Below, piece after piece: positions 5,610 to 26,346 of a stretch of DNA of 64,000 bases. Position 1 is the first letter of the stretch. Each line of letters opens with the position of its first letter. The stretch lies in contig OZ241742.1 in assembly GCA_965200955.1 (NCBI GenBank), forward strand, positions 170,320 through 234,319, read 5' to 3'. Both the position numbers and the translations under genes were made by a program. The DNA is from Rhodothermales bacterium (lineage in GTDB: Bacteria > Bacteroidota > Rhodothermia > Rhodothermales > Bin80). Below the pieces are notes generated by a model that saw nothing but the letters and a program-made list of their open reading frames with translations, was not told where the DNA came from and did no database searches.

Positions 5610-7691
5610 TTACCAGTTCATCCGAAGTCCAGCGAGTAAGGATCGCCCTGCTGCTGGATAAAGGAAAAGCGTGTCTGACCCGCCGGGATCAAAAAATCCC
5701 GTTGTACTGAAGAGATTATTCATCAAGTTAAGCGTCTCAAGTTCTACCGTTACCCATCCCAACGAATAGGTCAACTTGAAGTCTACTGAAGAAAAATTAT
5801 CCAATCTTTCAGTATTTGCATCATCAAGCCAGATTCTGCGTGTACTCCGAACCGTTGTCATCGCACGAACTCGGTCAAGAAGTGGTACACTGATCGCAGC
5901 TGATACATAATCCTGCGGAATCGTTCTGATGAACTTTCCTTTGTGCTCACCTGCACGGTAGGTCACATGCTGAAGCGTATAATTGAATCTTAAGGACGCA
6001 AGACCTATCCGTTCAAGTTGTACTCCCAATTCAACTCCACGGTGGCGACTGCTGGCAATATTTTCGTATTGGAAGGTTTCAAATTGAAAATCAAGCTCAT
6101 CCTCCATATCCATGTGATAGAGACTGAGCGTAAGGTCACCCGTAAGTTTTTCGGGAATGAGTACAGCTCGGTGATACACTCCAGTTTCAATACTGATGCC
6201 CCGCTGAGGTTTTAGATTTGAATTTGAAATCGATATCCCAGGCATTGCAATTGGGATTAGCCTTTGTCCAAAGAGTTGATCCATGGTTGCCGTCTTAAAC
6301 GATTGAGCAACATTCGCATACCAATTTCCTATATGGTCTGCACTTGAAATGTACCGCACATTCAACCCGAATTTAGGGCTGAGTGCAGTGTGCACTGGAT
6401 CCAATTTGGAACCCCCTTCGGGAGTATAGGAATCTGCAATCCGGTCATAACGAAGGCCTGCCGAGAGTTTAAGCTGAGACAATAGCTCTACGTCATACTG
6501 CAAAAATGCAGCGTACGATTGTCGGGAACCTGATCCACGAGTAGAAAGATCACCTATCGAACCATCAAAACCGTTAAATACCTCGGCAGGACCTGTCACC
6601 ATATCATACCATGCTACATCTAATTCCCCATTCTGAAGATCTCCTCCCACAGTAAGATGATCATTCGCTATAAGATCTTGAGAAACCCATTGCACGCTGA
6701 CAAATGAGCGGGAAGCATCAAACTGTCTCCATTTCACATCTGCAAATTCAGCACTCAGCGGCAGTGTGCGTGCCCCTTTCAATCCACGCTCATTCAGGAT
6801 CACCGATGCGAGTAATTCAGAACTTTGACTCAGGTTGAATATCCCTCGCAATGCCAGTCTTCGTGTATCTTCATCATTGTTGTCGTATTGAAAAAAAGGA
6901 GACTCCTGTACTCGGTCCTGTGCAATCTGCTGACTGGTGAGAGGCCCGGGTACATCATACTTTCGGGAATGTAAAGATGCTGAGAACCTCAGATTGAGTC
7001 GCTCAGAGTTCAGTAGATCAATTTCCATACCCAAGCCAGCGAGTGTTCGGTTGGCATGTTCACGGTAGCCATCAGTTGACTCATAGTTTCCATAGGATGA
7101 AATTCTTCTACTTCCCAACGAAAAATAGGAAGATCCACTTGCTTTCAATGTTCCATGGGAACCTCCAGCAATAGACAATTGATAGCTTGAAGGAGCGTCG
7201 GATGCAGTGATGATGTTGATGACTCCGCCAATGGCAGCATCTCCATAGAGCGACGATGCCCCACCACGAAGTACCTCAACCGACTCAATAGCGGCGAGTG
7301 GAATTTGATCCCAGTTGACCAGTCCAGTTTCAAGTGCATTCACTGGCTGATTGTCCACCATAAGTAATACATATTCAGCCTCTCCACCGCCATAAAATCC
7401 GCGGATGATTGGCTGCACATCATATCCAATACCATCTAATTGAAGCAGGGTAAAACCTGGCACTTGCCGAAGGATTCCTCCGAGCGTTTGAACTCCGGCC
7501 AATTGCTGGATATCATTTCGTTTTAGAACACTGATTGCACCCGTAGATTGTGATCGTATAGATTTATATCGATCGGCGGTCACGATGACATCGTCCATTT
7601 CAACGAGTCTTAGCGTATCTACATCCTGAGCGGATGTAGATGTAGACACTGAGTAAGTCAACAAGAATAGCAACAACACTCGTAATAACAT
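5610..7691 (-). CDS. TonB-dependent outer-membrane receptor
   Basis: Signal peptide MLLRVLLLFLLTYSVSTSTSAQ, plug motifs (DDVIVTADRYKS, VEVLRGGASSLYGDAAIGGVINI), long beta-barrel ending ...GLRMNW. The ORF track begins at 7766, but the Met at 7691 directly precedes the signal peptide. Confidence 0.85.
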   Translation of the reverse strand: MLLRVLLLFLLTYSVSTSTSAQDVDTLRLVEMDDVIVTADRYKSIRSQSTGAISVLKRNDIQQLAGVQTLGGILRQVPGFTLLQLDGIGYDVQPIIRGFYGGGEAEYVLLMVDNQPVNALETGLVNWDQIPLAAIESVEVLRGGASSLYGDAAIGGVINIITASDAPSSYQLSIAGGSHGTLKASGSSYFSLGSRRISSYGNYESTDGYREHANRTLAGLGMEIDLLNSERLNLRFSASLHSRKYDVPGPLTSQQIAQDRVQESPFFQYDNNDEDTRRLALRGIFNLSQSSELLASVILNERGLKGARTLPLSAEFADVKWRQFDASRSFVSVQWVSQDLIANDHLTVGGDLQNGELDVAWYDMVTGPAEVFNGFDGSIGDLSTRGSGSRQSYAAFLQYDVELLSQLKLSAGLRYDRIADSYTPEGGSKLDPVHTALSPKFGLNVRYISSADHIGNWYANVAQSFKTATMDQLFGQRLIPIAMPGISISNSNLKPQRGISIETGVYHRAVLIPEKLTGDLTLSLYHMDMEDELDFQFETFQYENIASSRHRGVELGVQLERIGLASLRFNYTLQHVTYRAGEHKGKFIRTIPQDYVSAAISVPLLDRVRAMTTVRSTRRIWLDDANTERLDNFSSVDFKLTYSLGWVTVELETLNLMNNLFSTTGFFDPGGSDTLFLYPAAGRSLLAGLRMNW

Positions 7692-8175
7692 CTTTTTAAT
7701 ATAATGGATAGGTATTGGTTGAATGATGAAAAAGTAGTTGACACTAAACATCAAAACTTCCTCCACATCTATGAATAAAGGACTCAGCTACCTTCAAGCC
7801 ATTAAAGCGAACATCCTTGAAGGTTTTGAAAAATTTCAATCGTAGACTTGTACTGTTTAACACCGCCAATTATCCAGACCCTGAATGAACCATGACAGTG
7901 GTACTTAATCGTTTTTTCTGATATTCTATTAAGGATCAATAGAGACAGATGCCTCCATCATAGCTGGATGAATGAGGAAATGGTCCTAAATTAATCCATG
8001 GATTACTTGAGATCTTCACTGACTAACTTGATTGATAACTCTTAAGAGAATCATTTTTTAAGAATATTTGCACATCTCATTTATGATGAATGTACGTCTA
8101 CAAAACGATTTTGGTAAGTAAAGCGGGTGTAAAAAGGTACCATATGACTTCCGCAGTATAGCAAATAATCGATTC

Positions 8176-9780
8176 CTACAACATTGAAAAATGTTCAGCA
8201 ATCTGATCCAATTTTTCAATGACTTCTGGATGAATTTCCTGTTTCTCCATCTCAGCCGCGATTTGATAAAAGTCTCGTTCATCGATATTCAAAAATGCAG
8301 AATTGAAGAATTGAGATAGTAGGCTTTTTGCTTTGATTTGCTGATAATAATTAGATGTATCAAGCATGTTATCGTATACTACTGGGGGTAACTGATCACG
8401 AATGAATAATGTTACTTTCTGGGCAGACTGTACTCCATGGTTCTTTTCTACAAATCGAGTGATTGCATCAGGATGGATCAGATAACTCTCTATCTCATAC
8501 CTTTCCCAGTACATGCGTATCATCCCCTTAGGGAGTTTAGGCATCGTACTGCGATCTTTTCCATTGCTATCACACAACTCCACTCCTCTAAAATCAGGCA
8601 CAAGTCCTTTAAGAGCAACAAAATGTCGAGTAGCGGACCATTCATTCCGAGCAGTTTCCCATGTAAATGGACACTCAAGAAATGGTAATAGAGGGTGCTC
8701 CAAAATACGTGCCCATTCCTTCAAAATGAGAATATCTGTGGATCCTTCAATATATAATATTTTTGCTTCTGTCTGTGCATTACAGATATCTACATTTTCG
8801 AGGTATAATGTATCTGATACTTTTCGTTTATCCGTGATCGTATACATTTCACTTCCCAATACACGGAGATCATCTCTTTGAACCGTGTTGATGAGCCGTT
8901 CAGAATGCGTAGCAATAATAAGTTGAGTTTGATTTTGACGAACACGCTTTAATAAATGCTGATAAATCTTATTCTGCAATAGAACATGCAGATGTGCATC
9001 TGGCTCGTCAATGAGTACAACTGAATTCTGTTCGTAAAGTAAAGTTGCATAAACCATTAAAATTTGTAAAAAGCCAGCTGCCGCACTACTCAATTCATAA
9101 AAAGTATCACTCATTGAATGACGATAACGTACATATACCTCAGCAGCTCCACTGGGAGGGTCCAACTCAAATCCAAAAAATGACCGAACGATAGATCTCA
9201 ACTCATTCCATTTATCCGAATCCTGGCTGATATGTAATAGCATATTCCGAAGGATGCTACCTCCTTGTCGGCGTGCCAACCGGGCTGTAATCACTATTCT
9301 ATCATAAAGTGGCTCCCTTAAATCCAACCCCGTAAATGGAGGAATATATGTGGAATGGATCGGTTGTTTGACGTATTTGTCTATATCACTTTCTTTCACC
9401 TCTTGGACTGGACGAATATCGGCTAACTCCCGCTCATGATAGATTATTTCAAAGCCGATTTTCCATGACTTTGTGTGTAACCATATGGATGAAGGATAAC
9501 GAACATTTTTACTGTGCCACAGATGATCAAAATCTATCAATGGCACCGATTGAAACTCTAAGACATTCAAACGAATACTCGGATAATTGCCATCTTCTTC
9601 CCGAGCGAGATCTGGAAAATTTTTTGACCAATGAGATGCAAATTCTATCCAACATGCGATAGCTTGAAGAAGTGTTGTTTTACCAGAGTTATTCTGACCA
9701 ACAATGACAACGTGATCAGGAAGATCAAACTCCAAATGCTCAAACTTCTTGAAGTGGTTGATAATCACTTTTTTGATCAT
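8176..9780 (-). CDS. ABC-type ATPase fused to a Toprim/DUF4435-like C-terminal domain (OLD-family or fused AriA-AriB/PARIS-like candidate)
   Basis: Walker A VGQNNSGKTTLLQAI, signature-like ELSSAAAGFLQIL, Walker B VVLIDEPDAHLH, H-loop IIATHSERL. The C-terminal ~200 aa start with KILYIEGSTDILILKEW (E-G-x-x-D as in Toprim-like DUF4435/RloB domains) and carry a later acidic patch VELCDSNGKD. The likely start is the Met at 9780 (MIKKVIINHFKKFEHLEF), not 9825. Confidence 0.6.
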   Translation of the reverse strand: MIKKVIINHFKKFEHLEFDLPDHVVIVGQNNSGKTTLLQAIACWIEFASHWSKNFPDLAREEDGNYPSIRLNVLEFQSVPLIDFDHLWHSKNVRYPSSIWLHTKSWKIGFEIIYHERELADIRPVQEVKESDIDKYVKQPIHSTYIPPFTGLDLREPLYDRIVITARLARRQGGSILRNMLLHISQDSDKWNELRSIVRSFFGFELDPPSGAAEVYVRYRHSMSDTFYELSSAAAGFLQILMVYATLLYEQNSVVLIDEPDAHLHVLLQNKIYQHLLKRVRQNQTQLIIATHSERLINTVQRDDLRVLGSEMYTITDKRKVSDTLYLENVDICNAQTEAKILYIEGSTDILILKEWARILEHPLLPFLECPFTWETARNEWSATRHFVALKGLVPDFRGVELCDSNGKDRSTMPKLPKGMIRMYWERYEIESYLIHPDAITRFVEKNHGVQSAQKVTLFIRDQLPPVVYDNMLDTSNYYQQIKAKSLLSQFFNSAFLNIDERDFYQIAAEMEKQEIHPEVIEKLDQIAEHFSML

Positions 9781-10074
9781 CCTGTAACGATAGTCATTTA
9801 TTATTGATGTACTACAGCATCGCACCTCAACTGTGCGATTAATTCATGCAGGCAAATGTTGTAGAGACAACAGAATATTTACCCTGAAACCGTAACTGCT
9901 CATGCCAGCCTCTATATACCAGCTATCTGCAGTTGTTCTACATGAATCAACGCTGTCATTTGAAAATTGTTCAATACAATAACCATACACGTTTGAAGAA
10001 AATGAGCACTTCATAATGAGGTTTGATTGATAGTATCCTTCTTATTCCGCATAGATCATTAGGGATGCTCCCCC

Positions 10075-11469
10075 TTAATTGCCATAGCGAGTATTATTAT
10101 TAACAAGTAAACTTTTATCTCCTGATCCCATGTAACGTTCAAGTAATGGGTGAGGGCCTTGTTCATCCATTGTATTTTCGTAGCATCCATGCACCAACCG
10201 AAATCTCTGCGTAGAAAATTGACCATTAGAATCTATTCTGAAATGGTGAACTCGGGCCATAAAATCATTAAATGTCATGCATGCAGCTTGCATATTCAAG
10301 GAGATCACAGCTGGCTGTTGCTCTCCCACACTGGTCAAGTATCCATTCTCAAGTTGTTGATCATAATACTCAGGATCTAATCGCTTCCAGTTTTCGGCGG
10401 TAACTTGAGACATAGTATATGCTCCACGAGATAATAAGCTTCCACCTTCAGGATAAGTATAGTGTGTAACTGCATCAGCGACTGTAATGCACCCATTGCC
10501 ATCAGCCTCTAAATGCACTCCTGTATCAAAATAAGGAATCAGGTATGCACTCGCTATACAATCTAAATGATAACGACCAAATGCCGTGTCCACACATCCA
10601 AAAATCACATCGCAGTCAATTAAGGCATCTTTAACATCTGGGCAGTCGGTCAATCCACAATAGGTATCAACCTTTGTCCCCGTGCCAATATTTTTAATAG
10701 CCCGTGCAATTGAAGAAACCTTAGATCGTTGACTTTTGGCATCATCTACGGTGCTGTTGATAATTCGATTTAAATTTTTCTCCTCTATGAGATCGTCATC
10801 AACGATCACTAATTCGCCGACACAATTACGAACGAGGAGTTCAATCAGGATACTACCAGTGCCTGAACAACCAATCACCCCCACCCGTAGTGACTGCAAT
10901 AGATTCAATGTCCCCTGACCAAAAATCTGGGAGAGATGATCTCTGTACTCCGCCTGTTGATGATCTTGGTTTAGTTTCCAGATGCAAATATTTTCTCCAA
11001 CCACAGATACAGCTGGCATTTGATTAAATGTTCCTTGCACATCTACTGTACGTGCTGTAATACGGCCATCTGGTAAAGCAATTGCTGACCCATTCAAGCG
11101 TCCATCATCAAACCAATTACATATTGATGAAAATAACCTTTGATCATTATGATCGTCAACCTCTGAAAACTCAGTACAACCACTTGGATGGGAGTGAATG
11201 ATGATAATGGACTGACCATTTTGATCTATCTCGCTGATCCTTTGAGGAGTGAAGAAGTCTTCCACTGGCCACGAGATGAAATCTTGTTTTCTGTCTGAGA
11301 GAGATCCTGATGGGTAAATGATGTCAGAGACGATCAGACGTTGGTATAGCTTGCCTGAGCCCTGATTGCATAACAAAATTGCTACCGCTTCCAGATTATC
11401 CCCTGGAAAAAGATGAGATATGATAGCGGTGTACTTGCTATCATTCATACTTAGTATAGCCCTCTTCAT
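10075..11469 (-). CDS. JAB/JAMM metallopeptidase fused to ThiF/E1-like adenylyltransferase
   Basis: N-terminal domain has an upstream Glu (NLEAVAIL) and HSHPSGCTEFSEVD, which is exactly H-x-H-x7-S-x2-D. C-terminal domain has the Rossmann motif VGVIGCSGTGSILIELLVRNCVGELVIVDDDLIEEKNLNRI typical of E1/ThiF/MoeB enzymes. The start overlaps the upstream stop as ATGA. Confidence 0.8.
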   Translation of the reverse strand: MKRAILSMNDSKYTAIISHLFPGDNLEAVAILLCNQGSGKLYQRLIVSDIIYPSGSLSDRKQDFISWPVEDFFTPQRISEIDQNGQSIIIIHSHPSGCTEFSEVDDHNDQRLFSSICNWFDDGRLNGSAIALPDGRITARTVDVQGTFNQMPAVSVVGENICIWKLNQDHQQAEYRDHLSQIFGQGTLNLLQSLRVGVIGCSGTGSILIELLVRNCVGELVIVDDDLIEEKNLNRIINSTVDDAKSQRSKVSSIARAIKNIGTGTKVDTYCGLTDCPDVKDALIDCDVIFGCVDTAFGRYHLDCIASAYLIPYFDTGVHLEADGNGCITVADAVTHYTYPEGGSLLSRGAYTMSQVTAENWKRLDPEYYDQQLENGYLTSVGEQQPAVISLNMQAACMTFNDFMARVHHFRIDSNGQFSTQRFRLVHGCYENTMDEQGPHPLLERYMGSGDKSLLVNNNTRYGN

Positions 11470-12572
11470 TTGAGGACTTCACGGTGGAGCATATTCACAA
11501 CAAATTCAATATGCCGTGCTATAGAATCATGTCCAGATTTCCAGTCATAATGGCGAGACCAACGTTGCCACTCCTTGCCGAAATGAGTTTCTGAACTTAA
11601 ACTTGATATGGGTGAGCCATCCATTTTTTCAAGTGGATGCCAGAAGTAAAACATGTCTAGTGCTGATCCTGGGTAACCTATCGGAACGAGAATCATCAAA
11701 GTAGATTTTCTATAAATGTAACCTTTGGGAAGCGGAAATTCCTTAATGATCAGACCATACTTTGCGTTACCCTCCATCTTTTTTGACCACCTTGATGGAT
11801 AATGTTGATCTAAGTATTGGATATCTTCAGGTAAGAATCCAAATGTGTATGGTCTGCCGTACTGTGCCTGTTTAGGAACCGTTTCAAATCGTTCTATACC
11901 ACAGTGAGATAGATTGATTTGATCATCTGTTGCAACCCTTTCCCGTTTACCACCATGCCATTTCTTATTTAGAGACCATTCATCGGTACGCTTTTCCGCC
12001 AATGCCAGAATTTCAGCACCCGAAAGCGTATCAGAGTCTACGACATGTTGAGTGGTGTCAATACGGATACAGTATGAATAGCCCCGCGGAGGTTTACGAT
12101 TGTGCTTTCCGCATTCTTCATGATCGATCACATCTTCCAAGCTGGGAGGGATGACAAAGTAGGAGTCCTGTTCCTGGATGATGATTGTCATATCATCTGA
12201 GATCTCAACATCTACCTCACCATGAGACTCTATAAACAAACGCCCTTCAGGAAAAGTGGAGTCAAATTTCTTGAGTTCTTTTCCTGTAATTTTGACCGAA
12301 TCAATCACTATGTTACGAGCACTATTGAATACTGGCCTCACCTCATTGCATTGAGATGATACTTCCTCATTGATATCCTTTTTTGTCTTTAACACCTCCC
12401 CCCCATGAACACAGAGATATTCGCCAATCATCAAGGGAATCTCCAAATCGTTGTATCTGACTAAAAAGAGTTGCATATTCCCACAATCTGCAAGTTCATA
12501 GAGATCTGTAATCTCAATTAAGCCACTGGGGAGTGAGTGATCTTTCCCATCAATTTGGATCAGAGTTTGCAT
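11466..12572 (-). CDS. Multi-ubiquitin-like (tandem beta-grasp) protein fused to a cysteine-less E2/UBC-like domain (Prok-E2_E-like)
   Basis: 368 aa. Three beta-grasp-like modules at approximately res 1-65, 78-145 and 165-239. The third reads YCIRIDTTQHVVDSDTLSGAEILALA...INLSHCGIERFETVPKQAQYG. The C-terminal ~130 aa (LPKGYIYRKSTLMILVPIGYPGSALDMFYFWHP) resemble an E2 fold. Assignment is from memory of the Aravind-group families, not from an HMM. Confidence 0.6.
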   Translation of the reverse strand: MQTLIQIDGKDHSLPSGLIEITDLYELADCGNMQLFLVRYNDLEIPLMIGEYLCVHGGEVLKTKKDINEEVSSQCNEVRPVFNSARNIVIDSVKITGKELKKFDSTFPEGRLFIESHGEVDVEISDDMTIIIQEQDSYFVIPPSLEDVIDHEECGKHNRKPPRGYSYCIRIDTTQHVVDSDTLSGAEILALAEKRTDEWSLNKKWHGGKRERVATDDQINLSHCGIERFETVPKQAQYGRPYTFGFLPEDIQYLDQHYPSRWSKKMEGNAKYGLIIKEFPLPKGYIYRKSTLMILVPIGYPGSALDMFYFWHPLEKMDGSPISSLSSETHFGKEWQRWSRHYDWKSGHDSIARHIEFVVNMLHREVLK

Positions 12573-12722
12573 ATCCTTATTCGGATCGTACGCGGAGGGT
12601 TGTCAAATATACGTAACGAACTCAATTGTTTTGTCTCAACTCATTCCGGCTATGATGCACCAATATAGTGAGTCAAGTTTTGAACATATTTTCATGAATA
12701 CCATCAACGCTAAATGTGATCC

Positions 12723-13676
12723 CTAATGATGAATGTTCAAGGTGTTGACGGCTTCAACAACCTGATCGTGGACGATACCATTGGTTGCAATGATTCCTAT
12801 GTTATGTTCTAACCGTTTACCACGACTGAAATCAAGTTGATTTCCTTTGCAGTCGGTCACCTTTCCACCCGCTTCTGAGAGTAACAGTGCTCCTGCTGCA
12901 TGATCCCAGATTCGTTCTACATAGCCATTACCAAGGGGGAGGCGCATATAGATGTCTGCATCACCGCTCGCTACTACTGCGTACTTTGCCTGACTGTCTA
13001 ATTGAACGCGGTCGGATGTGATCCCTAAATCTCGTGCAACCTTTTGGATGTCTCCAAGAGCGGTATGTCCAGATTCTACACTTTGACAAATTCTTGCCTT
13101 AGAAACATCGGAAATTTCAGTTACTTGAATACGATGTTGTCCGTGAGTTGCCCCAAGTCCTTTGGCTACCAAAAAAACATCATCACTCATATTGGGACAA
13201 GCAAGTCCTCCAACCACTACCTTCCCACCTTCTATCAATGCCAAGGCCACTGCATACTGCCCTCCTCGTAAAAAGCCTTTGGTCCCATCAATAGGATCCA
13301 ATGTCCAAAAACGATCAGAATAATGCTCAGCATTACCATAGTCAATCCATTTCAGGGCCGCCTCTAACAGGGTTCCAGGGCGAACTGCATCAAGATGCAT
13401 TCCTAATGTATTGCGAAGATCTGTCTGTTCTTCAGCACGCAACAGAGTGCTGTCTTCTTCGGCAATAATGGGATCATCAGGAAAGGCTTCGCGAAGTGTT
13501 CGACATACCAGTGCCTGACTTCCAAAATCTGCAATGGTGACGGGGCTCTTGTCTCCTTTAATCATTGCCTGTCGATCTTGCACAGAATGACATAACCGAG
13601 CTGCCTCGTGAAGAGCTTGCTTCACGGCATCCAATTCTTTTTCGTACATATTACTACTCATTCTCAATTGATACAA
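12723..13676 (-). CDS. 3'(2'),5'-bisphosphate nucleotidase / inositol monophosphatase family
   Basis: Motifs IIAEEDS, WTLDPIDGTKGFL and WDHAAGALL. An alternative start at the Met at 13649 would remove the 23-nt overlap with the upstream gene. Confidence 0.85.
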   Translation of the reverse strand: MYQLRMSSNMYEKELDAVKQALHEAARLCHSVQDRQAMIKGDKSPVTIADFGSQALVCRTLREAFPDDPIIAEEDSTLLRAEEQTDLRNTLGMHLDAVRPGTLLEAALKWIDYGNAEHYSDRFWTLDPIDGTKGFLRGGQYAVALALIEGGKVVVGGLACPNMSDDVFLVAKGLGATHGQHRIQVTEISDVSKARICQSVESGHTALGDIQKVARDLGITSDRVQLDSQAKYAVVASGDADIYMRLPLGNGYVERIWDHAAGALLLSEAGGKVTDCKGNQLDFSRGKRLEHNIGIIATNGIVHDQVVEAVNTLNIHH

Positions 13677-14124
13677 TCATGGTTTCAAATGATGGAATCT
13701 GATCTAAAAAATGGTAGCTTTGTAGAGACTGATCCACCTGACAACAGTAGTGTTGCATACCATTAGTAACCACGAGATATGGAACTTTCAATCCTAAATT
13801 ATAATACCCTACTTGATTGAAAACGCCCTGTCCTAATTGAACGGATGATCTTTTACACTCTACCACCAATATTGGTACAACTTGACGATTATAGACAACA
13901 ATGTCAGCCCTATACTGGCGTTCACGAATTGGAATGCTAACCTCAATATCAATGAGTCCACGCGGGACATTTAAATGGCTCATCATGTATTGTACAAAAT
14001 GCTGACGTACCCATTCTTCGGGCGTTAGAGTAACAAAACGTTTCCGTATAGGATCCAGAATCACAACGCGTCCATTGTGGTTACGGAGTTCGTAGTCATA
14101 AGCTGGCAGGTTCAACTGCTCCAT
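13654..14124 (-). CDS. Small HsdR-N-terminal-like (PD-(D/E)XK) domain protein
   Basis: 156 aa. TPEEWVRQHFVQYM..., RADIVVYNRQ..PILVVECKR (D...E-x-K core), then VVTNG. This is the pattern of the ~150-aa HsdR_N-domain proteins common in Bacteroidota. Confidence 0.7.
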   Translation of the reverse strand: MEQLNLPAYDYELRNHNGRVVILDPIRKRFVTLTPEEWVRQHFVQYMMSHLNVPRGLIDIEVSIPIRERQYRADIVVYNRQVVPILVVECKRSSVQLGQGVFNQVGYYNLGLKVPYLVVTNGMQHYCCQVDQSLQSYHFLDQIPSFETMIVSIENE

Positions 14125-14177: not shown

Positions 14178-14251
<74 letters not shown>

Positions 14252-14797
14252 CAGTTAGCATGTCAGTTTCTATATTTTCCAGATCCCGTCTGGTCTCCCC
14301 TCTAATGATTACTGTCTTCAAAGGACCCATTATACTCACCCATCCTTATACTGTTAATATAACTCTACTGTACAACCTTGTAACGAGCTCAGAATTCAAA
14401 TCAATTACCCGAAACCATCATTTTTCTTGAATTCCACGATTCTATGGATGCATTTAGACGGTTGAAACCTCATCAATTCCTTTATCTACTGGTCATCAAC
14501 CTTCAACAAGGTTCTACTCAGAGTCCAATAAAAACGTGACAAAAATGACAATTTCCCGAGGTGAATGTCTGTAAAAATCAATTTGATGATTTCGTATTTT
14601 AGAATAGTGTGGTATTTTGTTGATTCCCCTAAAAAGCGTATTTTATCAATAGTGATGCTTTCATAGATCTCTCAGGATAACATCAGTCATGTAGTTATCT
14701 CCAAGATTTACAACAGATGATCCAAATCCATTGATCAATCATCCCGGTTGGAATGAATCGCATACGACTTTTTTGAACTTTCATTAACTACATTTAA

Positions 14798-15082
14798 ATG
14801 AGTGAAGAAAAAACCGATGTTGACCAGATGGAATTCTGGGAAGAAGTCGCCATCAAGATTGACGAAAAGTATACACTTCACGCCTATATGGAATCGTGGA
14901 AGGGATTAACCTTAGATAACATGATTCAACGCACATACAAAGGTATGGAGACCAAGCCCATACTGGATTCTTGGGGCCGCCATTATCTTGTTCAATGCAT
15001 GAGGCGGTGGGGATGGGAGCCAATAAAAGGCACCCAAGGTTTATGGCGCAAGAAAAAGAAAGGATTTCGCCCTGATGATTGA
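14798..15082 (+). CDS. Hypothetical small protein (94 aa, Trp/Lys-rich)
   Basis: Only an isolated ORF of non-repetitive composition in an otherwise ORF-free stretch. No recognisable motif. Confidence 0.3.
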   Translation: MSEEKTDVDQMEFWEEVAIKIDEKYTLHAYMESWKGLTLDNMIQRTYKGMETKPILDSWGRHYLVQCMRRWGWEPIKGTQGLWRKKKKGFRPDD

Positions 15083-15748
15083 TCGCTGAGTTTTAAGCTA
15101 CTACGCCGACGCTCTTAGCCTTTCACAGCATCCTTCCCATACAGTGGATATATTCCTTCTAACATGGATCTCATAAAAAGAGGCACATAAGCTGATCTGT
15201 AATTCACTTCTGGAGGGGAAAGCGAATTGAGGGTGGTATTTCCCCTCCGGATCATTGTGTCAGGTATTTCGGTAGGTGGCTTAGACTGAAAAGTCAATCT
15301 TTGTAGCGTCTTTACAATCTTGATCGTGTTCATGCTTCCCTTTATCATGTTTTGAGTAATCTGACTGGATGAGACCGGACATCCACGGTTTCGGTGGCGA
15401 AAAGATTCACAAATTGACCATCTCAGAGGCACGCCAATCAGGAGCGGTGTCTTTGACGCTTGTCTTTCCATGACCCAGGCATAGGCGAACTTGCGGTTGA
15501 TCATATAGTCGTAGGCCTCAGCTTAATGCCTTTAGCATGATGTGGTCGTTGATGATAATGGTTGACTTGTCTATCGCCCCCATTTTGGGGTGTACCATCT
15601 TCGCTATCTTGACTCAACCCGAATGAGAAACGACACAATCTTGATGATAGCCCGATGATAGCCCCCTTGACACGGGTGCAACACCGCAGGTAGAACCAAA
15701 TACATACTATTTGGTTGACTAACCCATTCATGCTCCCATTGTGCACTC

Positions 15749-17650: not shown

Positions 17651-17684
17651 TCAGCGTTACCATGCAAACTGGGCTCACTTATGG
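17651..17684. repeat. IR-a, cassette copy: 34-bp perfect inverted repeat of 18918-18951
   Basis: tcagcgttaccatgcaaactgggctcacttatgg equals the reverse complement of 18918-18951, checked base by base. Confidence 0.95.
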
Positions 17685-17827
17685 CTGATAGATTCTCACA
17701 ATGGATTTGGCTCCATCCCACCCGTTGATGTTAAACAATTTAGTGCAGTAAAACAACATTTAGATCAGTATTGGGATAAACTATCAAATCGGCTTGATAA
17801 GGGAAATACTCCATATAATCTACGTAA

Positions 17828-18311: not shown

Positions 18312-21300
18312 CTAAACGTTAGTTTCAATAACACAAATTTCATGATCTGTTAAATCATAAAGATTATATACAAAGTGATCAAGTCTTTTTTTCAAGACTA
18401 AATACTCAGATTTATTATTGTGCAAGTTGGCTTGCGTAATCATGTCGACTAAACTACCATAAGTATAACTGTCTCCGTCGCATGGTTTAGGAATTGGGAT
18501 TTCAATTACACATGATTTGAGCCATTGAGTCTCACCCATTCCAGAAGTTGGTGCAGTATTTCTCACGAACCATGAAATAAGCTTTGAATTCAGAATTACA
18601 CATAGAAACTTAGTTGCTCTACCAGATAAGACATATGCACTGTTGGAAACAAAAAATTCCGACTGGTTGCAATAGGCAAATCTTCCCTGAGTACTGAGAG
18701 TAATCCAAAACAACTTTTCCTGAGAAAAAATATCGTGATAAGCACAAGTATCCTGTAATTCAAACCATTGATGAGGTGTTTTTTTTCTCGACTTAACCCC
18801 ATTAGGCAATTGCTCTCCAGTCTGCTCTAAGCGAGATTTTCCATGAGTGAGTAAATATCTCTTGATTGCAGGATACCTATTTATGTTTAAGTTTCTTGAT
18901 GGAAAAGTAGTGATAATCCATAAGTGAGCCCAGTTTGCATGGTAACGCTGAATATCTCGCCCCCTGAGTACAGGCTTCAAAATTTCTGCTGAATTACTGT
19001 CTTCAGCAATAAGTCTATCTTTAGTAGCTTGATCAACAATAAAGGCTTCATTTAAGCCAGTAGTGATCCCACGGTAAATTGAAACTGATTTCCATTCTTT
19101 TAATGGGGTGCCTTTATTGAACATCTTTTCTAAAATACACCATTCACAGTCACTCAATACTCGCCAGATATCATTTCCGTTTGGCCGAATCTTACCCCAT
19201 TGATTTTGGGGAGGTGGAAGAGCATGAGTACCGATGCGATCCAAATCAATTCCTTTGAATTCATTCTGATGATCATTGGGGGAATTTTGAAGAAACAAAA
19301 TACAGGTATCAACATCTGCTTCAAAAACATCTTTACCCACATCTAAAAGAGATAGAGGAGTAGAATGACGCGATAGGTAATTCCGCAATTTCTTGCCGTA
19401 ATTAGCTCGAAGCCAACTATTGGATGTAATGAAAGCCAAAATTCCTTGATCCTTCAGTAACTCGCATGATCTCTCATAAAATAATTGATAAATATCACCC
19501 GTCCTTGCAAAAGTACGATAACCAGCATCTTTGTATAATTTACCAAGTTTCCCGCCATCCTTCTGAAGAGACCGATAAGGTGGATTACCAATCACAATAT
19601 TGAATCCATCCTCAATCCCAAACATATATTGTGGATCAAACCAGTTGGCAATATTATTCTGGTCATATGGATTCCAAGATACTAACTGGTCTGAAGAATT
19701 TGGAGGAAAACCGAGTACCTTGAGTTCTTCCACTAATTCAGACCGCAATTTGGAGTCAATCAATTCACACTTCTGTTTTTTTTCCGTGCTATTGGCGTGA
19801 AAATATCTCTCACGATTAGTCAATAGTTCTTTCTGTAGAACGATAATTTTTTCGCTATTGAGAGTTCCTTCACTAATCAACTTCATCAGAGAATCCGCCG
19901 CGACAAAACGTGTCTCTAAATTTGGAAGAGGTTTGATTCCATAATTGTCTCTACCTTGATCTGATTCTTGCTCAATAATAAGTGAAATAAAGAAGCGTAA
20001 CTTAGTAATCTGACATGCAATCGCTTGAATATCTATTCCATAAATACTATTCTGAATCAAGTATATCTTACGCCCATAATCACCAGAATAGTTCTCAAAT
20101 ATATTGCTAATCTCAATTAATTCCTCATCTCGATCCGCTTTATCAATCGTTTCAAAGGCCTTATCCGATCTAAGTTTAGCTCTATCTTGTTGAAGACTTC
20201 TCCATAGTGAATTATCCTGATCAAGTTGGCGTAATGCGTAAGTCAATTTATGAAGGATAGTCATTGGAAATGCACCTGATCCAACAGCAGGGTCAAGAAT
20301 CTTTAATTCACTGATAAAACGAACAATTTCCTTCTTGTTTAGATCACTGAATTCTTCAGTTTTTATCTCATAATCAAAAAGTGAACGTAAACGATTTTCC
20401 CAAGACTTTATATTCCCATCTACTGGCTTAATCATTTTGCTCAACAGTGTAATTATCACCTCATCCACCATGTAATTAACAATATTTCTTGGAGTGTAGA
20501 ATGAACCAGTTTCATTTCTGGCAGTGTTTCTTGTTTCAGGGTTGTATGAAGCAAGTAGGTTTTCAAACACTAGTCCAAGCAGTTCTGGATCAAGGGCTAC
20601 ATCAATCTCTGTTGGAGTATTTTCTTCAACAGTAAATTTGTATTGATTAAGGATGGTAAATAAGCCGCTGGCACCAAAAAATAAATCATCTGGTACATTT
20701 AGACTTTCCCTGAATACTTTTTCACTTTCGGAAGCTCCATCCATTAAATAATCATCGTTAAACATGTCCAACTTCTTCGCATTCTGATCTTCATTTTTAT
20801 GATCATCAAGACAATCAAACAGTCCACCATTAATGAATGGAGTTTGTGCCATGAGTTCCTCAAAATGCTCAACTTGATCAATCAGAATCTGATATCTCCA
20901 ATGACTTGTTGTATACATTGGATCACCGTCATTGGTAGGTGTCCACGATCGCTTTTCCATGGGGACATTAAGCGTTGCGAAAAAAAGATTCTGAAGAACC
21001 GCTTGGTAGTAGTCTGATCCACCAAAATGATGAAGTAGATTTCTCATCTTTGACTTAGAGAACCACTCTTCTGAAACAAGTCCTTTTTCCTTCATAAACC
21101 ATACAAAGAGTATGCGTGTCACGCAACGAATTACTTGTTGCTCTGGTGAGACACCAGTGGGCCAAGTTGCAGTTGAAACGGCACGTTCAAACCATTCAAA
21201 CAGTTGTTGATAGAATTGACGATTAAGCGGTTTCGTATCAAGAACAGATTCCCATTTGTCATGGAGTTGATCAAAATTCTTAACACTCTTGTGCTTCTTT

Positions 21301-21890
21301 AGTGAAAGATTTTGTAAGATATCTAAATGTGCACGATGGGGATCTTTGACGCGAATATCCTTGATAAGCGTAACTTTTTCAAGAACATCTTTTGAGTGAT
21401 CTCTTAGGTGAGGTCGACGATGAATCAATGCAGTTGTTAGGTCTCGCTTATCAGATGTTTTACCATATCGATAAAACATGATCACTGGCATTTTGAAAAT
21501 CTTATTCACAATCCGAGTCATCTCTGCTAATTTGCCCCTCGTATATTTTTCTTCGCTTAAATCAACCGCGACAAAGAGAAAAGACTGGATGCGACCTTGG
21601 TCAAATTCAGTGGATGAAAAAATAGTGGATTCTTGAATCTCATCATCCGTTATTTGAAATACAATTTCTGCCTGATCCCAATGCTGTCTCAGCAAATCAA
21701 TCTGTTTATCTTTCACATTCTCCTCCGCTTTACCCCACTCTATGAAAGTGGTTAGATTATTATTTTCGGGTGGTAATACCTTATTACTGGTGTAACCAAG
21801 TTCAGAAAGTAATCGAACTGTGCTGTCTCGCAGAGATCCATCCGCAAAATCACGAATGGTATTAGAAATAGTTTGTTCAGATTGATGCAT
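18312..21890 (-). CDS. Large gamma-class N6-adenine DNA methyltransferase with C-terminal target-recognition region (Eco57I/PglX/DrmMI-like)
   Basis: 1192 aa. SAM-binding motif I ILDPAVGSGAFPM lies upstream of catalytic motif IV VIGNPPYRSL. A TaqI_C-like specificity region follows (ILAFITSNSWLRANYGKKLRNYL ...). The start overlaps the upstream helicase gene by 14 nt. Confidence 0.85.
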   Translation of the reverse strand: MHQSEQTISNTIRDFADGSLRDSTVRLLSELGYTSNKVLPPENNNLTTFIEWGKAEENVKDKQIDLLRQHWDQAEIVFQITDDEIQESTIFSSTEFDQGRIQSFLFVAVDLSEEKYTRGKLAEMTRIVNKIFKMPVIMFYRYGKTSDKRDLTTALIHRRPHLRDHSKDVLEKVTLIKDIRVKDPHRAHLDILQNLSLKKHKSVKNFDQLHDKWESVLDTKPLNRQFYQQLFEWFERAVSTATWPTGVSPEQQVIRCVTRILFVWFMKEKGLVSEEWFSKSKMRNLLHHFGGSDYYQAVLQNLFFATLNVPMEKRSWTPTNDGDPMYTTSHWRYQILIDQVEHFEELMAQTPFINGGLFDCLDDHKNEDQNAKKLDMFNDDYLMDGASESEKVFRESLNVPDDLFFGASGLFTILNQYKFTVEENTPTEIDVALDPELLGLVFENLLASYNPETRNTARNETGSFYTPRNIVNYMVDEVIITLLSKMIKPVDGNIKSWENRLRSLFDYEIKTEEFSDLNKKEIVRFISELKILDPAVGSGAFPMTILHKLTYALRQLDQDNSLWRSLQQDRAKLRSDKAFETIDKADRDEELIEISNIFENYSGDYGRKIYLIQNSIYGIDIQAIACQITKLRFFISLIIEQESDQGRDNYGIKPLPNLETRFVAADSLMKLISEGTLNSEKIIVLQKELLTNRERYFHANSTEKKQKCELIDSKLRSELVEELKVLGFPPNSSDQLVSWNPYDQNNIANWFDPQYMFGIEDGFNIVIGNPPYRSLQKDGGKLGKLYKDAGYRTFARTGDIYQLFYERSCELLKDQGILAFITSNSWLRANYGKKLRNYLSRHSTPLSLLDVGKDVFEADVDTCILFLQNSPNDHQNEFKGIDLDRIGTHALPPPQNQWGKIRPNGNDIWRVLSDCEWCILEKMFNKGTPLKEWKSVSIYRGITTGLNEAFIVDQATKDRLIAEDSNSAEILKPVLRGRDIQRYHANWAHLWIITTFPSRNLNINRYPAIKRYLLTHGKSRLEQTGEQLPNGVKSRKKTPHQWFELQDTCAYHDIFSQEKLFWITLSTQGRFAYCNQSEFFVSNSAYVLSGRATKFLCVILNSKLISWFVRNTAPTSGMGETQWLKSCVIEIPIPKPCDGDSYTYGSLVDMITQANLHNNKSEYLVLKKRLDHFVYNLYDLTDHEICVIETNV
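18673..18747. repeat. IR-b, copy inside the active methyltransferase gene
   Basis: Reverse complement is identical to 17828-17902 (75/75). Confidence 0.95.
18918..18951. repeat. IR-a, copy inside the active methyltransferase gene
   Basis: Reverse complement is identical to 17651-17684 (34/34). Confidence 0.95.
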
Positions 21891-24800
21891 CGGTAGAGTC
21901 TAAAATTGCAACCCAAGTGACTAGTTCAAATGAGTGTGCCCCGTAAGGAACATCTGGTAGATTAAGCAGTTTGGCAGATCGATTATTGAATAAATCTTCC
22001 AGCTGAGTTCTGGAAAATTTCCCGCGAATTTGCCGGATTGCTGAATCCAACATTTTCTCATAGTGAGACATATCACTGCCATTATGTGTCTTTTGATCAA
22101 ACGCTCCTACAAGTGCACGAATGGGTTCAGTTCGATTGGTTGCCAAATTACGAAATAGCGTGAGTATTTTCTTCGGCTGGTTGAACAGATACCTAACGGT
22201 TCCATCATCACGAACATAGGATAAAAAATAGGGATGTAATCGATTAGGTGTACGGACAGATCCAGAGTTTTTTTGTTTGAGACAAAATATAACTCCTGGG
22301 GCAATCTTTTCAGATGTAGGGACTGTTGGTTCAACTGGAACAACCGTACTGATTCCAAACGGGGCTTTTTCCAGTTCTTCACGTTTAGACTGGAGATACA
22401 TTTTCAGATCTGCTAAAAAGTCATCAATCGTGAAATCACTCAGAGAGACTCCATCATCTATTTCTTCAAGATCAAGACTCTCTTCTCGGATTCGCATCAG
22501 CTGTGCATCTCGAAAGTTCAACTCAGACTGCAGACTATCATGAACTTCTTCCTTTGAATTCGTAGTAAGAAGATCATTGCGACCAGTTGCGGCGGCATCT
22601 ACCAAAGCCATTCGAGAAATCACACGGTCCTTCAAGTTCAGATACCGTTCAAGGTCTTTGGTTGGCCAAAAATTTACCATCTGCACTTTCTGGTTACGAC
22701 TACCAATTCTATCAATACGCCCAAAACGTTGCATCAGACGTACAGGATTCCAGTGAATGTCATAATTCACGACCATGTCACAGTCTTGGAGATTTTGACC
22801 CTCAGATAAACAGTCGGTAGTAATCAGTATATCAATCTGATCTGACTTAGGGTCCGAGTGTTGTGCCATTGGTGCAAAACGTGAAAGTATTCCTCCAAAT
22901 TCGCGAATCCCTAAACTACTGTTGTTATCCCTTTGACCACCAGTGACGATTGCGATATGAACATAAAGTTCAGTGATTGCCCAATCCTTGAGGTTATTGT
23001 ACAAATAAACGGCAGTGTCTGAGAATGTGGTAAAGATCAACACTTTTCGATTAGACTCAGATTTGTTAACCAATGGCAGTTCGTATACTTTTTCTTTCAG
23101 GAGTTTTTTTAATTCAGCAAGTTTGGCATCCCTTGTGACACCTACTGCACTCGCTTCTACATAAACATCTCTTAAAACACTACGATCTTTTCGTATATCT
23201 TCCCTCCACTCCTTGAGTTTTAGCTCGATAAATCTATACGTCCTCCCTTTTCCGACGACAAACTCATCATCATCTTCAACTAATTCGTCATCTATGATGA
23301 GAGACTCCGTGTCCTCTGACCGGTCTTCATACCACCTCTCAATCATTGAATCCAGTGCATCCATTTTGCTTAAAATCCTTCCAATCGTAAGTGTGAATGA
23401 CTGAATGGAACTCTCCAATCTCTTTAACAGATTAACCCGCATCATTCCCACAAGCCAAGTTTCTCGATCTTTTTGGTTGAAGTTTAACCGATCCTTTTCA
23501 CCATCCAACTCAGATGTGTCTTTGACATACCATGATGGTTGATAGATTGCCAAGCTGAAACTGCTAATTTGTTCATGTAGATCATCGTAGGATAGTTCTT
23601 GATGCGTATCGGTATGCGGATGTAAGTTTCTTGGACTCTCTCGTTCGGGAAAACCTCCGATTTCCTTCTCAACCTCTGGATAAGCTTTTTGAATGTGCTT
23701 GCGAGAGCGTGCAATAGTGATAGCATCAAGGATCGCAAAGAAATCAGCTCCCAGCTTTTCAATTAATGCGTTCTTGTTACGGCTTGGATTTTCGTCTTGT
23801 GCCCATTTTTGAAATTCTCTTTGAGCTAATTTGAACACATTCTGAATGTCATCAATTCCAAGGGAATCACGGAATGCATCCTGACGCTTTTCAGTGATCA
23901 AATAAATTTGATTCCGAAGATCTCGGAGGCTTGTATTGACGGGGGTAGCTGAAAGCATCAGCACCTTGGTTTCACTTCCGGACTTCAATACATCTTCTAA
24001 CAATCGAGTGTATCTACTCCTTGAAATCAATTCGCCAGATTCATCCTTCTTGTCACGCCCCTCATTACGAAAATTATGAGATTCGTCAATAACAATTAGA
24101 TTGTAGGCACCCCAGTTGAAATCGGCGAGATCAATGATCCCTGACATTCCTTTTGAACGACTCAAATCAGTATGTGCAAGAACCGAATAATTGAGTCTGT
24201 CTTCTATCAAGGGGTTATTCGTGGACCCAGCAGAGGATAGATACCTCAGCCAATTTTGCTCAAGTTTTTTGGGGCAGAGAACTAAAACTCTTTGATTTTG
24301 AAGTTGAAAATACTTGATCACAGCCAATGCTGTCCATGTCTTCCCCAAACCAACACTATCTGCAATGATACACCCATTATGGCGAGACAACCGATTGATT
24401 GCACTCACAGCTCCGTCTTTCTGAAATGAATACAATGATTTCCATACCTTTGTATCGTACAGATGACTTGGACCAATGATATCCTCATGATCTTGAATCT
24501 CATCTAGTTTTTCTTCAAGCACATGAAACAAGGTCTTGTAATAAATGAATTCTGGCGAATAATTTTGTCCCAACCTTTGCAGAATCTCAAGGACCTCCTG
24601 TTTTGCATCACGCGTGAGATCATGATTATTCCAAAGCTGATTAAACCAATCCAAGAGAGGCTCACGATCAGGTTCATGTCCTACCTCAAGATTTAATTCA
24701 ATATTCGGGTTCCCTCCTAACCCCAAACCCCTCCTCGTAAAATTCGAACTACCGAGTACGACCTTGGAATTATCTTCCCCCTGATTCAAATGATAGAGTT

Positions 24801-25170
24801 TACCGTGGAGAAAATTGCTTTTTTGAATTGTTCTGATTTCCACTTTATCACGAATCCATTTTTCACATGCTATAGCAATCGGCTTTTGAGAAAGGATCTG
24901 CTTCAGCTCAATTCCACCATCGTCAGTCAAGCGATAATCTTTATGGTCACTTTTTGAAGGATCAATGACTTGTAATCCTCCTGGATCTCCATATAAAAAG
25001 CGTAATTCTTCAATCAGATCTAACTGATCTTTTAAATCGTGATAGGCATAAATGGTAAAATATGCCGATACGATCGATAGCTTAGTTGAAGAATCAAGTT
25101 CTTGGCTGAGGAAATCACCCAGCTTTCGATCTTGATTATCTATGATTGAATTCTTGAAAAGTGTGGTCAT
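21877..25170 (-). CDS. PLD-family (single HKD-like) nuclease domain fused to SNF2-type SF2 ATPase
   Basis: N-terminus: LHGKLYHLN...VVLGSSNFTRRG (H-x-K ... G-S-x-N PLD/Nuc-type motif). ATPase: IIADSVGLGKTWTA (motif I), LIVIDESHNFRN (II), LMLSATPVNTSLRDL (III), TDCLSEGQNLQDCDMVVNYDIHWNPVRLMQRFGRIDRIGS (V-VI). Confidence 0.85.
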   Translation of the reverse strand: MTTLFKNSIIDNQDRKLGDFLSQELDSSTKLSIVSAYFTIYAYHDLKDQLDLIEELRFLYGDPGGLQVIDPSKSDHKDYRLTDDGGIELKQILSQKPIAIACEKWIRDKVEIRTIQKSNFLHGKLYHLNQGEDNSKVVLGSSNFTRRGLGLGGNPNIELNLEVGHEPDREPLLDWFNQLWNNHDLTRDAKQEVLEILQRLGQNYSPEFIYYKTLFHVLEEKLDEIQDHEDIIGPSHLYDTKVWKSLYSFQKDGAVSAINRLSRHNGCIIADSVGLGKTWTALAVIKYFQLQNQRVLVLCPKKLEQNWLRYLSSAGSTNNPLIEDRLNYSVLAHTDLSRSKGMSGIIDLADFNWGAYNLIVIDESHNFRNEGRDKKDESGELISRSRYTRLLEDVLKSGSETKVLMLSATPVNTSLRDLRNQIYLITEKRQDAFRDSLGIDDIQNVFKLAQREFQKWAQDENPSRNKNALIEKLGADFFAILDAITIARSRKHIQKAYPEVEKEIGGFPERESPRNLHPHTDTHQELSYDDLHEQISSFSLAIYQPSWYVKDTSELDGEKDRLNFNQKDRETWLVGMMRVNLLKRLESSIQSFTLTIGRILSKMDALDSMIERWYEDRSEDTESLIIDDELVEDDDEFVVGKGRTYRFIELKLKEWREDIRKDRSVLRDVYVEASAVGVTRDAKLAELKKLLKEKVYELPLVNKSESNRKVLIFTTFSDTAVYLYNNLKDWAITELYVHIAIVTGGQRDNNSSLGIREFGGILSRFAPMAQHSDPKSDQIDILITTDCLSEGQNLQDCDMVVNYDIHWNPVRLMQRFGRIDRIGSRNQKVQMVNFWPTKDLERYLNLKDRVISRMALVDAAATGRNDLLTTNSKEEVHDSLQSELNFRDAQLMRIREESLDLEEIDDGVSLSDFTIDDFLADLKMYLQSKREELEKAPFGISTVVPVEPTVPTSEKIAPGVIFCLKQKNSGSVRTPNRLHPYFLSYVRDDGTVRYLFNQPKKILTLFRNLATNRTEPIRALVGAFDQKTHNGSDMSHYEKMLDSAIRQIRGKFSRTQLEDLFNNRSAKLLNLPDVPYGAHSFELVTWVAILDSTDASI

Positions 25171-25387: not shown

Positions 25388-26346
25388 TTACAAAAATTTT
25401 GCTCCTGCATGATCTTCAAAAACAGAAGCATCTCGAATATATTGGAGTACAGTTGCAGGATTTCTGTGTCTTGTCACCTCCATAATCTTGTCCAATCGTG
25501 CATGATGAACTGCAGCACTTGTCACAAAGCCAGCCCTGAGAGAGTGTCCTGAGTAATCGACTGGTGAGAGTCCGATCTTCTCGGCGTATTTCTTAACAAT
25601 TCTTGGTATCTCACTATGGTTCAAAGGCTTTCCAGATAAATGCCCACCCTTCCTAAATGTCTGAAATAAATAGCCATGCAGAAGGTTTGTTTTTTCTATC
25701 CATGTATGTAATCGAGTGACAGGACGAATAGATTTACCCTCTAAGACTGCGATCATTTGCCCGTTTCCTTGTTGATCGGTTTTTGATTGGCGAATCGTTA
25801 ATATTATTCGGTCAGAAGATATAAAATTCACATCTTCCATCTTGAGACTACATAATTCCGAACGTCGGAGAGCCGCGGCAAACCCAAGTGAAATAATTGC
25901 AGAGTCCCGGAGTCCAAAAAGTGTATCTGAACAACTCTCCAACATAGCACTGATATCATATTCACGCAATGCCTTCACTCTTCTTGGAGAATCATTACGA
26001 ATCCGTGATAAGCCTCCAAGTACATCGGTAACACGAACCGCTGAAGCTGGTGACTCTATATCTTTCTCTGTGAAGCACCAATTCAATGCACTTCGGTATA
26101 GTCTAAGGGTTCCTGAAGATAGCTTTTGATCCGAGTTTCTTTTCCTCAGAGAGGAAAGCCAAATAAAAAATTCACAATATCGTCAGAAGAAGCTGCTTCT
26201 GGCTCAATCTCTTGATTATCACAAAATTGTTGAAATCGCTTCCAAGCCTTGTTGTATGCCAGACGAGTATTATCAGAATAGGCTGCTCTTCGCAATTGTT
26301 CTGCCGTACAGGTCATAGCATCTTGTAGATGTGATGATACCATCAA
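25388..26346 (-). pseudogene. Tyrosine recombinase/integrase split by a frameshift at a homopolymer tract
   Basis: ORF 26146-26346 is the SAM-like N-terminal domain (SDNTRLAYNKAWKRFQQFC). ORF 25388-26086 is the catalytic domain (AAALRRSEL..., HSLRAGFVT, LQYIRD with the catalytic Tyr). The downstream frame is already open from about 26185 and reads EFFIWLSSLRKRNSDQKLSSGTLRLYRSALNWCF. The two frames meet in the A6 run 26165-26170, and one extra A would give a continuous ~319-aa protein. Confidence 0.75.

Follow-up and report, generated by a model that had tools for sequence, protein, structure and literature searches.

A 64,000-nucleotide stretch of the genome of a Rhodothermales bacterium (GenBank assembly GCA_965200955.1, contig OZ241742.1, positions 170,320 to 234,319 of the forward strand; hereafter the window) carries a compact three-gene unit on its minus strand. 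Two of the genes clearly belong to a bacterial ubiquitination-like (Bub) pathway; the third encodes a predicted nuclease of the OLD family. It is probable, in our view, that this cassette is a Type I Bub operon without its bubE gene, that it is joined to the nuclease gene, that its conjugation machinery would work by the steps set out below and that the nuclease would act in the same pathway. As far as we have checked, the variant is new: it represents a Bub subfamily that is firmly linked to an OLD-type nuclease and, in the window, has no bubE.

The Bub family was defined in two preprints (10.1101/2024.11.21.623953 and 10.1101/2024.11.21.623966; Ye et al. 2024). It was first described computationally by Iyer et al. 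2006, whose row 6e comprises a PolyUbl protein, an 'inactive' E2/RWD-like domain, a JAB-E1 protein and a metal-binding protein. [quoted passage not shown] Published work covers how this pair is processed, its crystal structures and its conjugation chemistry (10.1101/2024.11.21.623953; PDB 9EA4, 9EAE, 9EAV). This chemistry is unusual in that ubiquitin-like conjugation takes place without catalytic cysteines. Instead, the family uses tyrosine and serine oxyester intermediates (Ye et al., 10.1101/2024.11.21.623953).

An earlier reading of the window from its letters alone, which we call the original prediction, described the gene pair as a candidate stand-alone defence or stress module and knew of no experimental work on this exact architecture. 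Both statements have to be given up. The pair is the very one that defines Type I Bub, characterised by Ye et al. (10.1101/2024.11.21.623953). Nor does it stand alone: the unit in its relatives has four genes, bubA(B), bubCD, bubE and an OLD-like nuclease gene, and the unit in the window has three, bubE being missing. An ATPase or nuclease partner of Bub is not mentioned in either Bub preprint, in Iyer et al. 2006 or in the other literature searched; the supplementary operon table of Ye et al. and Burroughs et al. 2011 lay outside that coverage.

Results

The Bub gene pair

The bubAB gene (11466..12572, minus strand) encodes a pre-protein of 368 amino acids in which BubA, made up of three beta-grasp Ubl modules, is fused to the E2-like BubB. 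Downstream of it, bubCD (10075..11469, minus strand) encodes a 464-amino-acid protein in which a JAB/JAMM peptidase is fused to an E1 adenylation domain. These are the two open reading frames (ORFs) singled out by the original prediction, and the domains that it assigned to them are borne out by Pfam, AlphaFold2 and Foldseek. All four of the Pfam families it had named are matched, so that the four activities, Ubl, E2-like, JAB and E1, are indeed packed into two polypeptides. In the bubAB product the matches are to Multi_ubiq (PF14452, residues 169-233, E = 1e-10) and Prok-E2_E (PF14462, residues 247-364, E = 3e-25); in the bubCD product they are to Prok-JAB (PF14464, E = 9e-7) and ThiF (PF00899, E = 1e-22).

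Because the two proteins match solved structures of Bub proteins directly, we assign them to Type I Bub, as clear members by sequence and predicted fold. BubCD aligns with Citrobacter BubCD (9EA4) over residues 9-448 with a phmmer E-value of 2.4e-72. The BubB part matches Citrobacter BubB (9EAV_D) with a phmmer E-value of 1e-18, and with 3e-37 when a family profile is used. The AlphaFold2 model of BubAB, with a predicted local distance difference test score (pLDDT) of 89.7, contains three beta-grasp modules and an E2-like domain. In Foldseek, this model matches Citrobacter Ubl3 (9D5A, E = 5e-10) and Citrobacter BubB (9EAE_C), the latter with a template-modelling (TM) score of 0.88, a root-mean-square deviation of 1.4 Å and about 35% identity. 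Further Foldseek matches (9CD2, 8U38 and 9EA8_B) include the E. coli and Methylobacterium Ubl3 proteins and BubA 155-229. Homologues of bubAB fall into 123 clusters in a sequence search.

Where would the pre-protein be cut? The BubA part (11856..12572, minus strand) spans residues 1-239, with beta-grasp modules at about residues 1-65, 78-145 and 150-239 according to the secondary structure of the AlphaFold2 model. It ends in Gly239 (codon 11856..11858, minus strand; KQAQYG|RPY), the predicted JAB cleavage site and the predicted C-terminal glycine for adenylation. We place processing here on three grounds. The G239 column is invariant in an alignment of 30 sequences. In relatives where the gene is split, the BubA portion is a separate protein of 236-275 amino acids (239-255 in 12 of 13), and these stand-alone proteins terminate in ...AQQG plus 0-4 residues. 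Finally, residues 238-243, with Gly239 at the start, are the sole segment of the BubAB model with a pLDDT below 50. In Citrobacter, cleavage at G229 has been established by Edman sequencing (Ye et al., 10.1101/2024.11.21.623953). In an attempt to map the Ca2+ sites of Ubl3 filaments onto BubA, beta-grasps 1 and 2 gave no sequence alignment with the solved Ubl3 proteins.

The BubB part (11469..11855, minus strand; residues 240-368) is an E2/UBC-like domain. A search for cysteine in residues 240-368 found none, a feature that the original prediction had missed. We mapped residues of the window proteins through alignments to the Citrobacter proteins. Asp306 (11655-11657), Ser339 (11556-11558) and His341 (11550-11552), all on the minus strand, correspond to Citrobacter D299, S333 and H335. 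Ser339 and His341 are invariant in 61 of 61 orthologues; Asp306 is kept in 59 of them and is Asn in the other two.

The same holds for the catalytic positions of BubCD. Its JAB/JAMM domain (10975..11469, minus strand; about residues 1-165) carries Glu27 (11389-11391, minus strand), the equivalent of Citrobacter E28, and the motif H92-x-H94-x7-S102-x2-D105 (11155-11196, minus strand), which reads HSHPSGCTEFSEVD from H92 to D105. H92, H94 and D105 correspond to Citrobacter H91, H93 and D104; no counterpart is given for S102. The E1 adenylation domain (10078..10947, minus strand; about residues 175-464) contains a GxGxxG loop at residues 198-203 (GCSGTGS), Asp224, Arg235 in an NLNRI motif (10765-10767, minus strand; Citrobacter R227) and the crossover-loop Tyr377 (10339-10341, minus strand; Citrobacter Y370). 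All five JAMM residues (E27, H92, H94, S102 and D105), as well as R235 and Y377, are invariant in 59 of 59 orthologues, and there is no cysteine in residues 340-385, the crossover-loop region. In sum, the window keeps all the Bub catalytic residues that have been reported: G239, D306, S339, H341, E27, H92, H94, D105, R235 and Y377. The motifs quoted by the original prediction are present in the sequence, among them the DDD motif in the bubCD product.

The stop codon of bubAB and the start codon of bubCD overlap as ATGA (11466..11469, minus strand), as first noticed in the original prediction, and the same four-nucleotide overlap is found in 12 related loci. Public gene calls in two of the closest relatives (L001, 6641-8014; L002, 6610-7983) start bubCD at the internal Met8, giving 457 amino acids. 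The ATG in the overlap, giving 464, is the one used in the sister genome and is consistent with the Citrobacter BubCD alignment.

Since every residue involved is conserved, the window proteins most likely follow the reaction sequence demonstrated by experiment for the Citrobacter homologue (10.1101/2024.11.21.623953). The JAMM domain of BubCD would cut BubAB after Gly239, releasing BubA (1-239) and the cysteine-free E2 BubB (240-368). The E1 domain of BubCD would then adenylate Gly239 by way of Arg235 and Asp224. The Ubl would be handed as an oxyester to the crossover-loop Tyr377 and moved, again as an oxyester, to Ser339 of BubB with the help of His341 and Asp306. In the last step it would be joined to lysines of target proteins.

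The OLD-family nuclease gene and its association with Bub

The third gene (8176..9780, minus strand) is best read from the ATG at 9780, the start used in the original prediction, and encodes 534 amino acids. The original prediction had called its product an OLD/PARIS-like nuclease ATPase, and PADLOC, Foldseek and motifs agree. The ABC-type ATPase head (8791-9780, minus strand; about residues 1-330) contains a Walker A motif (GQNNSGKT), a Walker B motif (LIDEPDAHLH) and an H-loop (ATHSE). It matches Pfam AAA_15/AAA_21, and PADLOC matches the protein to its NsnB, AriA, AriAB, GajA and PtuA models. The C-terminal 234 amino acids match no Pfam domain, Toprim and DUF4435 included; this part was read as Toprim-like from motifs and structure. 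The Toprim-like region (8179-8778, minus strand; about residues 335-534) contains LYIEGSTD, whose E345 is invariant, D404-S-N406 and WERYEIESY. In Foldseek, the AlphaFold2 model (pLDDT 86) finds the Thermus OLD nuclease 6P74 as its top match, followed by full-length GajA; TM-scores are low (0.27-0.30) owing to domain arrangement. Motifs and model together point to an OLD-family ABC-ATPase/Toprim-like nuclease.

One position departs from the family. The consensus of the Toprim DxD motif is D[GS]D; in the window it reads D404-S-N406 (8563-8571), and each of L001-L005 has the same D-S-N. We considered whether this variant tracks the loss of bubE and rejected the idea, because DxN also occurs in three bubE-positive loci.

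How firmly is this gene tied to Bub? In 37 of 61 species-level loci a full-length OLD orthologue (36-79% identity) lies directly after bubCD or bubE, and in 2 more it lies elsewhere in the locus. The loci linked in this way come from Rhodothermales, Latescibacterota, Nitrospirales, Binatia, Thermodesulfobacteriota, Alphaproteobacteria and Gammaproteobacteria. In every one of the 28 loci for which both start codons could be located, the ATPase gene begins inside the end of bubE, with an overlap of 4-26 nucleotides. The identities of BubCD and of the OLD ATPase to the window proteins rise and fall together (r = 0.91, n = 36). Bub genes lie directly upstream of two of the three ATPase orthologues picked independently from a protein search. 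From this pattern we infer that the nuclease has been inherited together with Bub across many phyla and would act in the same pathway.

Some related loci have other neighbours. In seven Bub loci without an OLD-like gene (L023 at 5940-8002, L050, L051, L052, L053, L058 and L059), a conserved pair lies directly upstream of bubA: an AAA_15/AAA_21 ATPase of about 430 amino acids and a protein of 170-235 amino acids without a Pfam match (N-terminus ...DTNVFEHL...). Long ORFs, ResIII-like in the one that was scanned, stand on one or both sides of the pair in L023, L050 and L059. The presence of a different ATPase at these loci suggests that Bub repeatedly requires an ATPase as partner. The bubE-less sister lineage (L003, 8107-9996; L004, 8116-9996) has a gene of 626-629 amino acids with no significant Pfam match; it ends 4 nucleotides before the bubAB start, has no counterpart in the window and may be an extra component of the sister-lineage operon. 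Locus L018 (12317-16695) lacks both bubE and the OLD gene and has about 1.8 kb without a listed ORF downstream of bubCD. Beyond this stretch comes a Cas9-like gene (972 amino acids, N-terminus ...GLDVGTNSIGWSV), followed by a pair of short ORFs, possibly cas1/cas2-like.

The absence of bubE

According to Ye et al., 'all Bub operons possess bubE', the gene for a Ser-His protease with a DUF6527 (PF20137) domain (10.1101/2024.11.21.623953). At the position of bubE in the relatives, the window has a non-coding gap of 294 nucleotides (9781..10074, minus strand) with no recognisable bubE remnant. We built a BubE hidden Markov model (HMM) from 15 seeds, the small ORFs 3' of bubCD in related loci, one of which (in L006) is DUF6527 by Pfam (E = 1.6e-15). 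This model matches in nearly all of 62 related genome loci. It has no match in the six-frame translation of the window. With stops masked, the gap itself scores -0.4 bits, compared with 149.6 bits for the L006 positive control, and tblastn found no bubE match either.

The loss is not confined to the window. The BubE HMM finds no match in the closest relatives, L001-L005, and bubE is also missing, with the OLD gene kept, in L034 and L067. Could the cassette be a decaying remnant, its conjugation genes non-functional and on the way to becoming pseudogenes once bubE was gone? The missing gene, a gap with no coding potential, the DSN in the Toprim motif and the lack of a CapH/CapP or CapW regulator in the window all speak for it. 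We nevertheless think it very improbable. None of the three ORFs is broken, no catalytic residue is missing, and DxN variants occur in loci that keep bubE. The sister lineage retains the same three intact, bubE-less genes at 71-79% amino-acid identity within different genomic flanks, and between the window and this sister locus the ratio of nonsynonymous to synonymous substitution rates is 0.13-0.16 for all three genes. On this comparison of sequences, the bubE-less state is not decay.

What would a Bub pathway without bubE do? With the deconjugating protease BubE missing, conjugates would be longer-lived or would have to be removed by another activity. Natural bubE-less loci such as the one in the window could serve as ready-made 'deconjugase knock-outs'.

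Genomic context and distribution

In the window, the three-gene unit is flanked by a TonB-dependent receptor gene and a cysQ-like gene. Between the latter and a tRNA-Pro(CGG) gene (14178-14252, plus strand) lies a small stand-alone HSDR_N_2 protein (13654-14124, minus strand; E = 2e-35), corresponding to the N-terminal domain of a type I restriction R subunit. The tRNA gene, the only Rfam match, is 1.6 kb from the three genes and is followed by a lower-GC block of restriction- and defence-like genes (14300-26100). This block contains an AAA_16 ATPase (15749-16873), a fragment of a TaqI_C specificity domain (17862-18260), an Eco57I/TaqI_C methylase of 1192 amino acids (21890..18312, minus strand), a PLD and SNF2/ResIII helicase of 1097 amino acids (25170..21877, minus strand) and a tyrosine-integrase fragment of 232 amino acids (26086..25388, minus strand). 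It looks like a tRNA-associated restriction/defence island, and the 'defence-type neighbourhood' of the original prediction is in keeping with it: the methylase, helicase, integrase fragment and tRNA look like accessory or defence DNA.

The original prediction had pointed to a low G+C content on the strength of a 35% spot count over 60 nucleotides, which is numerically right and unrepresentative. Over their full lengths bubAB has 41.5% G+C and bubCD 41.4%, at about the 34th percentile; the whole sequence, taken in 1.1-kb windows, has 43.6 ± 3.9%. Lying within 0.6 standard deviations of the mean, these values led us to reject a compositional anomaly. A search for flanking repeats that might mark an insertion returned only matches of 14-19 nucleotides, at chance level. 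A promoter and terminator scan of 7900-12900 likewise gave counts at chance level; Bacteroidota-type promoters are outside the scope of the tool.

The window sequence is identical to a contig of GCA_026708685.1. Its relatives are almost all marine metagenome-assembled genomes (MAGs) from many phyla, and loci of the OLD-linked Bub subfamily come almost exclusively from marine MAGs of uncultured organisms that belong to widely differing phyla (loci L005-L066). The bin names SB0677, RHO3 and CAR1 resemble those of sponge-microbiome bins; going by names only, this would suggest horizontal spread within one habitat. A total of 103 plasmids, of which 55 are conjugative, carry BubCD homologues of up to 43% identity, and none were found in phage genomes. 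At least seven relatives have a pair of CapH/CapP-like regulators upstream of bubAB.

Discussion

Our findings describe a Type I Bub operon that, in the window, lacks bubE and is followed by an OLD-family nuclease gene. What might such an arrangement do? The nuclease would most likely be the part of an anti-phage or stress system that cuts nucleic acids, and Ubl conjugation or Ubl filaments would sense or gate the activity of that system. Going one step further, we tentatively suggest, as a possibility that falls short of probable, that Bub conjugation and the OLD nuclease form one system in a marine, mostly uncultured subfamily. Conjugation of BubA, or the assembly and disassembly of its filaments, would switch the nuclease or mark its substrates, and the bubE-less form could not reverse the mark.

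Several observations weigh against a shared Bub-OLD pathway or against the way we have drawn it. The argument for a functional coupling of the two is one of synteny. Twenty related loci have bubA(B), bubCD and bubE but no OLD gene, and neither do the two plasmid-borne Bub loci that were inspected, which are Type I operons; from such loci it follows that Bub can work without OLD. The third of the three ATPase orthologues sits among transposases, without Bub. No Bub operon tested by Ye et al. gave phage protection (10.1101/2024.11.21.623953). With Asn at the second acidic position of the Toprim DxD motif, nuclease activity might be lower or otherwise changed. Finally, bubE, said to be a feature of all Bub operons, is not in the window; a bubE-less pathway may behave differently, or the gene may lie elsewhere in the genome.

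The first of these points invite another explanation, in which Bub and the nuclease are independent defence or accessory modules that travel together because defence genes cluster, with no mechanistic link. OLD-family nucleases are known to act alone or with other partners, as P2 Old, Gabija and PARIS do, and it is to such proteins that the window nuclease has its structural matches. Together with the Bub loci that have no OLD gene and the OLD orthologue that has no Bub, this gives the explanation some force. We regard it as unlikely all the same, since the overlap of the ATPase start with the bubE stop in every locus where it could be assessed, a gene order that is constant over at least eight phyla-level groups and the correlated divergence of the two proteins all make independence less likely. 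In addition, the OLD gene still adjoins bubCD where bubE has been lost (L005, L034 and L067), and seven further loci have a different AAA_15 ATPase and small-protein pair directly upstream of bubA.

A sulfur-carrier system of the ThiS/MoaD-ThiF/MoeB type, for cofactor or thionucleoside synthesis, is suggested by the match of the E1 core to the ThiF and MoeB models of Pfam and NCBIfam and is for practical purposes excluded: the NCBIfam scores are far under the cut-offs (62.5 versus 275 bits, for example), the E1 forms a fusion protein with a JAMM peptidase and matches BubCD over its full length, the Ubl consists of three beta-grasps fused to an E2-like domain, and no thi or moa genes are adjacent in the window or in 66 related loci inspected, so that the sulfur-transfer context named by the original prediction as a test is absent.

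A Bub pathway coupled to a nuclease would be important for several reasons. Published Bub work ends without a target, a trigger or a phage-protection phenotype. The Bub-OLD subfamily, with its translational coupling of the two, offers a testable output, nucleic-acid cleavage or toxicity, and if the functional coupling is real, Bub pathways would gain in the OLD nuclease their first effector and with it their first biological read-out. There is also a practical consequence for genome annotation: two genes labelled 'hypothetical' or 'ThiF family' should be named bubAB and bubCD.

How does the cassette compare with known systems? It shares with the Type I Bub operon of Citrobacter the order of its two fusions, Ubl3-E2 before JAB-E1, the conserved glycine at the cleavage site, a cysteine-free E2 with Ser, His and Asp, and an E1 crossover loop with Tyr and without Cys. 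Unlike that operon, it lacks bubE (DUF6527) and has an OLD-family nuclease gene attached. It also differs from known Type I Bub operons in that neither CapW nor CapH/CapP adjoins it.

Type II CBASS, with Cap2 and Cap3, and Type I/II Bil (BilABCD) likewise use bacterial E1/E2/JAB conjugation machinery in mobile or defence contexts, and CapH/CapP-type regulators are common to them and to the relatives of the window cassette. The cassette fails, however, on the defining features of both, and we rejected its membership in either. Cap2 is an E2-E1 fusion with catalytic cysteines that conjugates a CD-NTase, whereas in the window JAB precedes E1, the E2 is cysteine-free and the neighbourhood contains no CD-NTase gene; matches to the PADLOC CBASS E1-E2 models are confined to the ThiF core, with at most 35 bits. 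Bil differs in having a separate E1 (IAD-AAD-CYS) and a cysteine E2.

The nuclease, for its part, resembles Thermus scotoductus OLD (6P74), GajA of Gabija, AriA/AriB of PARIS and the retron Eco8 effector. With these it shares an ABC-type ATPase head bearing both Walker motifs and an H-loop. The putative Toprim-like part behind the head keeps the conserved Glu (LYxEGxTD) as well as an ExE(N/S)Y motif, and the best structural matches of the protein are full-length. The window clade differs from the known members in the DSN at the DxD position and in having no Pfam model over the C-terminal part. It differs most of all in the company it keeps: Gabija pairs its nuclease with a UvrD helicase, PARIS with a separate AriB and the Eco8 system with a retron, whereas the partner of the OLD nuclease in the window is a ubiquitin-like conjugation set.

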